Positions 61,330 through 63,799 of a stretch of 64,000 nt of DNA are shown piece by piece. How positions within the stretch are numbered: position 1 is the stretch's first letter; every line of letters starts with the position of its first letter. The stretch lies in the NCBI RefSeq assembly GCF_003018255.1, contig NZ_CP027440.1, one strand, 5' to 3'. The position numbers and the translations under genes were made by a program. This stretch comes from Escherichia coli (GTDB taxonomy: Bacteria > Pseudomonadota > Gammaproteobacteria > Enterobacterales > Enterobacteriaceae). The notes below the pieces were generated by a model. The model was not told where the DNA came from. It was given only the letters and a program-made list of their open reading frames with translations, and made no database searches.

Positions 61330-63102
61330 TTACATCAACGCCCCCATAATCTTCAACTCCAGCTCATCCGGCACTTCGTTATACGACAGCACATGCAGCC
61401 CCGGCGCAAACAACCTTGCATAGCGCGCCAGCAATGGACGCAGTTGCGGCGGCACCAGCAGCACCGGGTCTTTCCCCGCCGCTTTCATCTGCTCCTTCAC
61501 CTGTGGCATCGTACTCTGGAACTGGTTAAGCATATTCGGGTCCACCGGCACGCTGTCGAGCATCACTTTGCCGGCCTGTTGCGCCTGATTCACCACGTTG
61601 GTCAGCAGATTTTCCAGCTCATTATTCAGCGTATACACCGTCAGCTCCTGCTTGCGAACGAACGGATGGGTGATACTGCGCCGCAGCGCCAGGCGCACAT
61701 CTGCCGCCAGCAGGATATGATCTTTAGTCACCGCACTACTGGCGACCAGCACGGTGGCGATGGTGACAATATCGCGCAGGGAAACGCCTTCGGTCAGCAG
61801 CGCGCGATACACTTTCAGCAACTGGCTGTAATTGAGCGCTGCGCTTAAGTCTTCCGCCAGTCGCGGTGCCATCGACGACAGGCGGTTATGCAACTGCGTA
61901 ATATCGTCATAGTTAAATAAATCAGGAATATAGCTGCGCACAATCTTATTCACATGGGTGGCAATCACGCTGGCGCTGTCGATCACCTGATACCCCATAT
62001 TCAGCGCCTTCGCTTTCTGCGCAGGCTGAATCCAGGTGACCGGCATCCCATATGCCGGGTCATTCCCCAGTACGCCGTCAATCTCGCCGTAGGTTTCGCT
62101 GGAGGGCAGGGCCATCAGTTTATCTGCCGGAATATCCGCTTCATCGGCCTTAATGCCGTTGATGAATATGGCGTACTGGCTGGGCTTGAGGCGGAAGTTT
62201 TCCCGAATACGGATCTCCGGCAGCAGCACGCCGTTGCCGTCGGATATCACCTGCCGCACGCCGCGAATCCGCTGGGTGAGTGGGTTCCCCTGCGCTTTAT
62301 CGACCAGCGCCACCAGCTTGTAGCCGAGGCTTAAGCTGATAGGCTCGATCAGCGGAATGGTTTCCCAACTGACCTGTTGCTCGCTGGTTTCAGTGATGGT
62401 GCGGGTTAGCGTTTCAAGACTTTTCTCCTCCGCCTCCGCCGCCTGCGGGCGTTTGCTCATCCGCCAGCCGGTAAAGCCAAGCAGGGCGCTGAACAGCAAA
62501 AACGGCAGGTGCGGCATTCCCGGCACCACCGCCAGTACAAACATAATTCCGGTGGCGGTGTAGAGCACCGACGGGCTTGCCAGCAGCTGGTGGCGCACGT
62601 CATGGGCGATATCGCCGTTGTCGCTGACGCGGGTGACGATAATCGCCGCCGCGGTGGAGAGCAGCAGGGAAGGGATCTGCGCCACCAGCCCGTCGCCGAT
62701 GGTCATCAGCACATATTGCTGGAAGGCGGCGTCGGCGCTCAGGTTGTATTTGAAGATCCCGATACAGACGCCGCCGATCAGGTTGATCGCCAGAATCATC
62801 ATCCCGGCGATGGCGTCCCCGCGCACAAACTTCGATGCCCCGTCCATTGCGCCGTAGAAATCGGCCTCGCTGGCAACATCTTTACGCCGGGTTTGCGCCT
62901 GCGCCTGGTTGATCAACCCGGCGTTAAGATCGGCGTCAATCGCCATCTGCTTACCGGGCATCGCGTCTAAGGTAAAGCGGGCGGAAACCTCGGAAATACG
63001 CTCGGCCCCTTTGGTGACGACGATAAAGTTGATTGTCAACAGCGTCAGTAAATCCGAGCGTGAAAGCATTATCGCCGCGCTGCACGGGCAGTCGATTTTC
63101 AA
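61330..63102 (-). pseudogene. lfhA: N-terminally truncated FlhA-family flagellar export protein (remnant of a second flagellar system, Flag-2, lfhA)
   Basis: 590-aa ORF begins inside the FlhA membrane domain (…INFIVVTKGAERISEVSARFTLDAMPGKQMAIDADL); the first about 115 FlhA residues are missing. Confidence 0.7.
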
Positions 63103-63799
63103 TGGTGGCGGGCTGTCGCCGTTAAATAAAATCAGCCCGTCTCATCCGCCAAAACCTGCCACCGTGGCGGTGCCGGAAGAGACGGAGAAAAAAGCGCGCG
63201 ACGTCAACGAGAAAACGGCGCTGCTGAAGAAGAAATCCGCCACCGAGCTTGGCGAGCTGGCAACCAGTATCAATACCATCGCCCGTGATGCGCATATGGA
63301 AGCGAATCTGGAGATGGAGATTGTTCCCCAGGGATTACGCGTGCTGATTAAAGACGACCAGAACCGCAATATGTTCGAACGCGGCAGCGCGAAGATTATG
63401 CCGTTCTTTAAAACTTTGCTGGTGGAGCTTGCGCCAGTGTTCGACTCGCTCGATAACAAAATTATTATTACCGGGCATACCGATGCGATGGCCTATAAAA
63501 ACAATATCTACAACAACTGGAACCTTTCGGGCGATCGCGCGCTTTCGGCTCGTCGGGTGCTGGAAGAGGCTGGAATGCCGGAAGATAAAGTGATGCAGGT
63601 AAGCGCAATGGCGGACCAGATGCTGCTGGATGCCAAAAATCCGCAAAGCGCGGGCAACCGGCGCATTGAGATTATGGTGCTGACCAAAAGTGCGTCCGAT
63701 ACGCTGTATCAATACTTTGGTCAGCATGGGGATAAAGTGGTGCAGCCACTGGTGCAAAAGCTGGATAAGCAGCAGGTGCTTTCGCAGCGAGCGCGTTAA
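63050..63799 (+). pseudogene. lafU: C-terminal fragment of a MotB/OmpA-like flagellar motor protein (Flag-2 remnant, lafU)
   Basis: C-terminal OmpA-like peptidoglycan-binding region (NLSGDRALSARRV...GNRRIEIMVL); the upstream part of ORF 62909-63799 is antisense to lfhA, so the N-terminus is missing. Confidence 0.6.

Follow-up and report, generated by a model that had tools for sequence, protein, structure and literature searches.

Lateral flagella of Escherichia coli are encoded by a second flagellar gene cluster, Flag-2, for which strain 042 is the type example of the intact form in the literature. Remnants of the two border genes of this cluster, lfhA (fhiA) and lafU (mbhA), have been described before (PMC3032704, PMC6993521, PMC11420993), and their reading as the scar of a deletion within lfhA and lafU is attributed to Ren et al. 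2005, as summarised in PMC6993521. In that survey 531 of 4,028 Enterobacterales carried the remnants, among them 50 Citrobacter and every one of the 76 Flag-2-negative E. coli that were looked at (PMC6993521). Remnants and truncated border genes in Flag-2-negative strains have been reported from E. albertii, Shigella and Citrobacter (PMC11420993; PMC6993521), with the same 2.5-kb truncated locus present in E. albertii (PMC11420993). Conversion of the scar to the intact state is documented in a recent clone, sequence type 131 (ST131): the two fragments are found in subclade B1, and Flag-2 was acquired by subclades that came later (PMC5369007). Here we analysed one such locus in a 64,000-nt stretch of E. 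coli DNA (assembly GCF_003018255.1, contig NZ_CP027440.1; hereafter the window). Positions 61330-63799 of the window are with certainty the known Flag-2 deletion scar, made up of an lfhA remnant (lfhA') and a lafU remnant ('lafU), and the RefSeq annotation agrees. We found that the breakpoint of this scar is identical to the base across several genera and that its gene stumps stay open, neither of which is stated in the remnant literature consulted (PMC11420993; PMC6993521). We favour, with a probability of roughly 70%, one old illegitimate deletion that has persisted as a presence/absence polymorphism, its flanks being homogenised by recombination with intact alleles.

The remnants lie between rayT and dinB, as placed by aligning the open reading frames (ORFs) and the RefSeq annotation of E. 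coli K-12 and JNE23-011 to the window. Gene order is collinear with K-12 (yafJ-dpaA(yafK)-yafL-rayT-lfhA'-'lafU-dinB), and the K-12 pair lfhA (fhiA, b0229) and lafU (mbhA, b0230) has the same stumps, lengths, strands, neighbours (yafL, rayT, dinB) and junction. RefSeq labels the K-12 stumps [quoted passage not shown] and "putative lateral flagellar export/assembly protein LafU". The window allele differs from K-12 at about 5% of nucleotides (lfhA' is 94.9% and yafL-dinB 94.3% identical), nearly all differences being synonymous, and the window is without the dinJ-yafQ genes found upstream in K-12. The closest genome was JNE23-011, which is 98.9% identical over window positions 57436-64000 and in which RefSeq annotates the same two features.

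The lfhA remnant (61330..63033, minus strand) holds codons 131/132-697 and the natural stop of a Flag-2 FlhA-family export-gate gene, truncated at the 5' end and kept as an uninterrupted frame of 566 codons. The 590-aa ORF that contains it (61330-63102) matched Pfam FHIPEP (E=4e-189, 631 bits) at profile positions 99-656 of 657 only, and was 98% identical in amino acids to residues 125-697 of the full-length 697-aa LfhA, with BLASTP similarity real only from ORF residue 24. The lafU remnant (63034..63799, plus strand) holds codons 53-307 and the stop of a Flag-2 MotB-like stator gene, codon 52 being rebuilt across the junction. Its 296-aa ORF (62909-63799) matched Pfam OmpA (E=2.9e-14, 54 bits) and was essentially identical to LafU from residue 52 on, with similarity real only from IVNSVSK. 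MotB_plug was not found in this ORF by the Pfam search, whereas full-length LafU has both MotB_plug (residues 19-70) and OmpA; the remnant keeps the OmpA-like peptidoglycan-binding domain and its transmembrane/plug segment is gone. The stumps are clear homologues of the FlhA/SctV (FHIPEP) proteins and of MotB stators, but are fragments: the N-terminal helices are gone from the one, the transmembrane helix and plug from the other. An earlier note, made from the letters of the window alone, had called the minus-strand ORF an FlhA-family frame without its N-terminus and the plus-strand ORF MotB/OmpA-like in its C-terminal part. Both descriptions stood up to alignment, in which the FlhA-like frame was not full length and the MotB-like region was homologous.

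That note had also described the remnants as convergent and overlapping in antisense, and here the alignments said otherwise. From the junction lfhA' reads leftwards and 'lafU rightwards; the stumps are divergent, head-to-head and both truncated at the 5' end. The apparent overlap (62909-63102) is produced by mechanical ORFs that stay open past the junction. The lfhA' frame runs on for 23 codons into the antisense of 'lafU (63034..63102, minus strand; MKIDCPCSAAIMLSRSDLLTLLT), with no FlhA homology, and the 'lafU frame for 41 codons into the antisense of lfhA' (62909..63030, plus strand). The second read-through contains an out-of-gene GTG at 63014, which is where the 261-aa "LafU" of the RefSeq Prokaryotic Genome Annotation Pipeline (PGAP) starts; the PGAP-style protein begins with MTTIKL followed by IVNSV. 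Convergent remnants with truly antisense-overlapping coding sequences would be suggested by these ORFs and by the K-12 RefSeq coding sequence coordinates, which overlap by 35 bp, but such a geometry is almost certainly wrong: LfhA homology stops at 63033, LafU homology starts at 63031, the overlapped parts resemble neither protein and the genes read away from each other.

The breakpoints were mapped against E. coli AH21C082, where this site is occupied by a complete Flag-2 cluster bounded by genes for LfhA (697 aa) and LafU (307 aa) that both read outwards. BLASTN matched window positions 61000-63042 to rayT-lfhA and positions 63028-64000 to lafU-dinB. In a base-by-base three-way alignment, identity on the lfhA side ran through 63033 and identity on the lafU side began at 63031. 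The shared GAT (63031..63033) is a 3-bp microhomology present at both parental breakpoints, and it lies within an imperfect in-register repeat. In register, the parental sites agree at 15 of their 27 positions, a score that places them among the top 0.18% when the two gene ends are paired in every way, the best pairing reaching 17. The remnants do abut, as the earlier note had it, although at 63033/63034 and not near 63050. On the two sides lfhA is kept from gene base 391 (codon 131 of 697) and lafU from gene base 156 (third base of codon 52 of 307). LfhA has lost residues 1-130 of 697 (131 if the shared GAT is given to lafU), in agreement with the note's view that N-terminal residues are missing but not with its figure of about 115, and LafU has lost residues 1-51 of 307. 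The large internal deletion of the flagellar cluster that the note proposed was confirmed by this alignment. The missing segment, 38,904 bp in AH21C082 and 36,097 bp in FAM21845, consists of flagellar and cargo genes, and each of these two loci has an IS1 copy. Intact Flag-2 clusters (AH21C082, XD35, 05-3004, CUVET21-H2, FAM21845) occupy the same site with the same flanks, and the 3' 1.7 kb of lfhA and 3' 0.77 kb of lafU are homologous to the stumps and identical to them in some pairs; what they have and the window lacks is the first 390 bp of lfhA, the first 155 bp of lafU and the 36-39 kb of flagellar and cargo genes between. The K-12 junction sequence is identical, with 2 single nucleotide polymorphisms (SNPs) in the surrounding 105 bp, and the same breakpoint (lfhA base 391, lafU base 156) was found in 11/11 sampled E. 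coli scar alleles.

The membrane parts that were lost are the parts without which neither FlhA nor MotB works. In the full-length sequence the LfhA loss covers three hydrophobic segments and most of a fourth, and the LafU loss includes FADFTLAMMALFMTLW from the Pfam MotB_plug segment. The upstream genes lfhB-lfiR are absent and the motA/lafT gene lies inside the deleted segment. What is left does not amount to a functional FlhA/FHIPEP export gate, with its N-terminal membrane domain incomplete and the flagellar operon genes lfhB-lfiR gone, or to a functional MotB-type stator, with the MotB_plug segment and the gene for the partner MotA (LafT) gone. Judging from domain content, neither stump would be able to do its original job.

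The scar is the common state of the locus in E. coli. With a match covering 80% or more of the K-12 scar as the criterion, it was present in 4,071 of 5,426 complete genomes (~75%), and lfhA was intact across the breakpoint in 1,291 (~24%). A chance arrangement or an assembly artefact was ruled out by the two Pfam E values and by the recurrence of the junction in these 4,071 genomes.

We propose that illegitimate recombination joined lfhA codon 131 to lafU codon 52 at the GAT within the weak imperfect repeat. With lfhA and lafU being the outermost, outward-reading genes of the cluster, such an event would have removed both 5' ends, their promoters and about 40 genes between them, leaving LfhA' without three and a half N-terminal membrane helices and LafU' without its membrane anchor, plug and proton-channel aspartate. 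The scar probably arose once and was then inherited and spread by homologous recombination through its flanks. Stumps and the corresponding 3' parts of working lfhA and lafU would share one gene pool, in which selection in the 24% of genomes that are intact would purge deleterious variants for all.

The exchange of flanks was assessed using SNPs and near-identical allele pairs. The E. coli lfhA' set held nine distinct scar alleles (from ten genomes, JNE23-011 being identical to the window) and five intact lfhA alleles, or six with FAM21845; the 'lafU set held ten scar alleles and four intact alleles. Mean r2 between the 159 lfhA' SNPs and the scar/intact state was 0.067, compared with 0.071+/-0.031 after permutation of the state labels, and the four-gamete test was violated from 9 bp off the junction onwards. 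Over the first 100 bp of lfhA', diversity was 0.039 among scars and 0.042 among intact alleles. No valley of diversity flanks the junction on the lfhA side, and there is hence no sign of a single recent sweep. Three pairs of E. coli scar and intact alleles were informative. K-12 and intact FAM21845 have 1 mismatch over the 4,806 bp left of and up to the junction, with the 3' 1.7 kb of FAM21845 lfhA 100% identical to the K-12 stump, and are 2.3% different right of it. ZF8-1 and intact XD35 are 100% identical in 'lafU and 99.9% identical in dinB, and a difference appears 8 bp into lfhA'. Trh52 and intact CUVET21-H2 share identity on the lafU-dinB side only. One-sided identity in 3/3 pairs points to recombination ending at the junction and not to fresh deletion, from which two-sided identity would be expected. 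The simplest reading of these alignments is that, when scar and intact chromosomes recombine, the exchanged tract runs no further than their homology. Tracts that end at the junction because homology ends there would put the stumps into a common gene pool with the 3' parts of functional lfhA and lafU.

FAM21845 (NZ_CP017220.1, 245500-295400) has a K-12-like backbone, its dpaA, yafQ, dinJ, rayT and dinB proteins being identical to those of K-12. Its full Flag-2 cluster is itself damaged, with an internal stop in flgF and a CadC-like regulator split by IS1. The whole of yafL-dinB (59754-64000) is unusually diverse in E. coli (94.3% identity to K-12 vs 98.3% for the adjacent dpaA; dS 0.13-0.22, where dS is synonymous divergence), and lfhA alleles are nearly all about 5% apart in a star-like pattern.

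Constraint on the stumps was measured as the ratio of nonsynonymous to synonymous divergence (dN/dS). Scar against scar, lfhA' had a dS of 0.22 and a dN/dS of 0.023, and intact against intact lfhA had a similar dS and a dN/dS of 0.024. For 'lafU the values were dS 0.12 and dN/dS 0.046 among scars, and dS 0.13 and dN/dS 0.040 among intact alleles. The functional neighbour dinB gave dS 0.13-0.17 and dN/dS 0.023 over all pairings. The stumps do not have the profile of a neutrally decaying pseudogene (dN/dS near 1, stops, frameshifts): their dN/dS is 0.02-0.05, and no stop codon or indel was found in any sampled full-length E. coli stump. The single, old deletion that we favour accounts for this through the shared gene pool, in that the stumps would look purified because they belong to it, though they are probably useless in the genomes that carry the scar.

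The same values raise the alternative that the stumps function in their own right, with LfhA' (half of transmembrane segment (TM) 4, a cytoplasmic loop, TM5-8 and the cytoplasmic ring domain) and/or the OmpA-like LafU' expressed and directly selected. We consider this very unlikely. It would account for scar dN/dS values equal to those of intact genes and of dinB, and for the annotation of 'lafU as an ordinary coding sequence in RefSeq; regulated fhiA mRNA, measured in O157:H7 EDL933 (PMC6863780), points the same way. The deletion took the promoters and start codons, however; no start codon is conserved across genera, and the starts that are available depend on codon choice on the opposite strand. 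Promoter-like sites were at chance level, with 4 found compared with 2.1+/-1.4 in shuffled sequence. LafU' cannot reach the peptidoglycan because it has neither a signal sequence nor a membrane anchor. The name mbhA recurs in the metabolic-engineering literature, where the locus presumably serves as a neutral site for chromosomal integration. Natural disruptions, which also fit the single, old deletion, do occur: in E. coli TW10690 lfhA' lacks 210 bp in frame, in the E. albertii type strain NBRC 107761 a 22-bp deletion in lfhA' shifts the frame, insertion sequences interrupt the scar in RM14516 and OkiPb01690 (ISEc31 and IS421), and shorter stump variants exist in Atlantibacter hermannii. An intact form able to supply "pre-purified" sequence has moreover been seen or reported in most species examined, including A. 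hermannii.

Two published studies (PMC6863780, PMC9387321) treat fhiA (Z0290 in EDL933) as a working flagellar gene with an MraW-bound "promoter" and do not mention that it is a 5'-truncated Flag-2 stump; their quantitative reverse transcription PCR does indicate that the fhiA stump is transcribed. The first 69 bp of 'lafU (63034-63102) are invariant in 14/14 aligned E. coli alleles, scar and intact, and are broken by one singleton in JNE23-011, which is outside this 14-allele set. The rest of 'lafU is about 3% diverse, and no comparable invariance was seen on the lfhA side.

To recover scars in other genera, the PGAP-style LafU stump was used as a protein query, and contigs encoding exactly the proteins found were then looked up. 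A scan of species-representative contigs with full-length LfhA was swamped by distant FlhA homologues, and its useful results were E. albertii and two intact Citrobacter loci. Plug-less LafU proteins that start with MTTIKL or MKL followed by IVNSVSK, the first residues being the antisense of lfhA, came from Citrobacter gillenii, C. amalonaticus, Citrobacter sp., Kluyvera ascorbata, Kluyvera sp., Atlantibacter hermannii, Atlantibacter sp. and Enterobacteriaceae H11S18. At the DNA level, six cross-genus loci had a yafL-like gene followed by lfhA' on the minus strand and 'lafU on the plus strand, broken at the same nucleotide, with lfhA' kept as 566 open codons in all six. The junction is nucleotide-identical in E. 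coli, E. albertii, K. ascorbata, C. gillenii, A. hermannii, Atlantibacter sp. and H11S18. The flanks are genus-specific: LafU' in other genera is 62-81% identical to that of the window, and in Atlantibacter and H11S18 the gene downstream of 'lafU differs. Between genera dS exceeded 1, and dN/dS was 0.02-0.13 for lfhA' and 0.05-0.19 for 'lafU.

For most of these species an intact form is known from our searches or from reports. In K. ascorbata a full LafU is identical to the stump at 278/280 residues, a full LfhA of A. subterranea is identical to the stump at 559/563, two full-length LafU proteins were found in A. hermannii, and about 25% of E. albertii genomes are intact (PMC11420993). Table 1 of PMC6993521 lists no Flag-2 for Atlantibacter. 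We had considered this genus as a scar-only test of direct selection, with A. hermannii and Atlantibacter sp., both scar-bearing, at dS 1.24 and dN/dS 0.026 with 566 open codons, figures that would fit functional stumps. It was rejected for this use, since full-length LfhA and LafU both exist in the genus. A relative-rate test counted 18 unique amino-acid changes in A. hermannii and 10 in intact A. subterranea, a difference that is not significant (chi-square 2.29).

Identity of the junction across genera raises the question whether the lfhA and lafU breakpoints are instead a deletion hot spot, acted on by a sequence-directed illegitimate event or by an unrecognised site-specific activity, so that scars are many, independent and mostly young. 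Under such recurrent, position-specific excision one would expect the same junction between genus-specific flanks, and one would expect scar and intact alleles of one species to be nearly identical, as they are in K. ascorbata LafU, in Atlantibacter LfhA and between the K-12 stump and FAM21845. Young deletions would also have the unrelaxed dN/dS and the lfhA' frame that is uninterrupted in every cross-genus scar bar that of the E. albertii type strain, and the parental sites have an above-chance imperfect repeat in common. Against this, the perfect homology is 3 bp only, across 36-39 kb, and we know of no RecA-independent process that precisely repeats a deletion on 3 bp of homology across such a distance. 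The annotation of two intact loci lists neither an integrase nor a recombinase, the sole mobile-element genes being incidental IS1 copies. As far as annotation and sequence go, the cluster does not resemble an excisable island or site-specific module, in which attachment-type repeats of about 10 bp or more would be expected. Scar and intact alleles of E. coli are identical on one side only, as described above, and deep clonal lineages (K-12, O157:H7) are all scar-bearing. On balance we regard recurrent excision as unlikely, though clearly less so than function of the stumps.

Two candidates for such an activity were examined and set aside. RayT as the deletion enzyme was rejected because rayT is absent beside the scar in Kluyvera, C. 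gillenii and Atlantibacter. The junction itself makes a perfect 5-bp inverted repeat with a 3-nt spacer (GTTGA TTG TCAAC, 63028-63040), of which each parental site has a 4/5 version. As a recombinase site this palindrome was rejected because it is not conserved, Atlantibacter having GTTAA-TCG-TCAAC, and it is probably coincidental.

Several observations weigh against the single, old deletion that we favour. The stumps are as constrained as functional dinB, and the lfhA' frame is open over its full length in 10/11 sampled E. coli scar alleles. Within species (Kluyvera, Atlantibacter), 0/32 scar-vs-scar differences are nonsynonymous, which would also suit functional stumps and which the gene-pool argument explains qualitatively. 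Single origin is what we infer: because the flank SNPs and the indel are in linkage equilibrium, no founder haplotype is left that would prove common descent. Across at least five genera with the identical junction, the flanks differ at saturated synonymous sites (dS>1), so that one origin would require the polymorphism to predate these genera or the scar to have passed between them. Because the junction is identical in at least five genera, intact forms occur in most species and the flanks are unlinked and not decayed, we hold it possible, with odds well short of even, that the junction is either the product of recurrent position-specific Flag-2 excision or a balanced polymorphism older than Escherichia, Citrobacter, Kluyvera and Atlantibacter.

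Around the scar, repeats of the repetitive extragenic palindrome/bacterial interspersed mosaic element (REP/BIME) type at 60436-60525, 61172-61261 and 61273-61327 (a 90-nt family with 91% and 61% copies) bracket rayT (about 60615-61112). They also take up the space from rayT to the lfhA stop codon and have hundreds of short matches genome-wide. In other strains a hicAB module stands in place of rayT downstream of lfhA. On the other side, CTGTATACTTTACCAG, a CTG-N10-CAG LexA-box-like sequence at 63838-63853, lies 17 bp upstream of the dinB ATG (63870) and is presumably the dinB SOS box. The dinJ-yafQ toxin-antitoxin pair, which in K-12 lies between dpaA (yafK) and yafL, is absent at 59379-59680 and is likewise absent from JNE23-011. 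Upstream of the scar, window positions 30000-54000 hold a type VI secretion cluster (tssC, tssF, tssK, tagH, VgrG) and an Rhs core protein; the cluster is 96-99% identical in a subset of E. coli, with at least 80% of it covered in 1,524 of 5,426 genomes.

The scar is textbook E. coli genome archaeology, the record of a lost second, lateral flagellar system. It is useful as a neutral integration site and as a typing marker, Flag-2 presence separating ST131 subclades. The larger interest may lie in its population behaviour: a 36-39 kb polymorphism with a base-exact breakpoint across genera and no linkage 9 bp away. It would be a clear case in nature of homologous recombination halted at a boundary of heterology, and of dead gene fragments preserved by purifying selection that acts in only a minority of backgrounds, and it is a caution for pipelines that judge the function of truncated genes by dN/dS or open frames. 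Were recurrent excision to be true, the locus would suggest a so far unrecognised mechanism that deletes a large flagellar island precisely.

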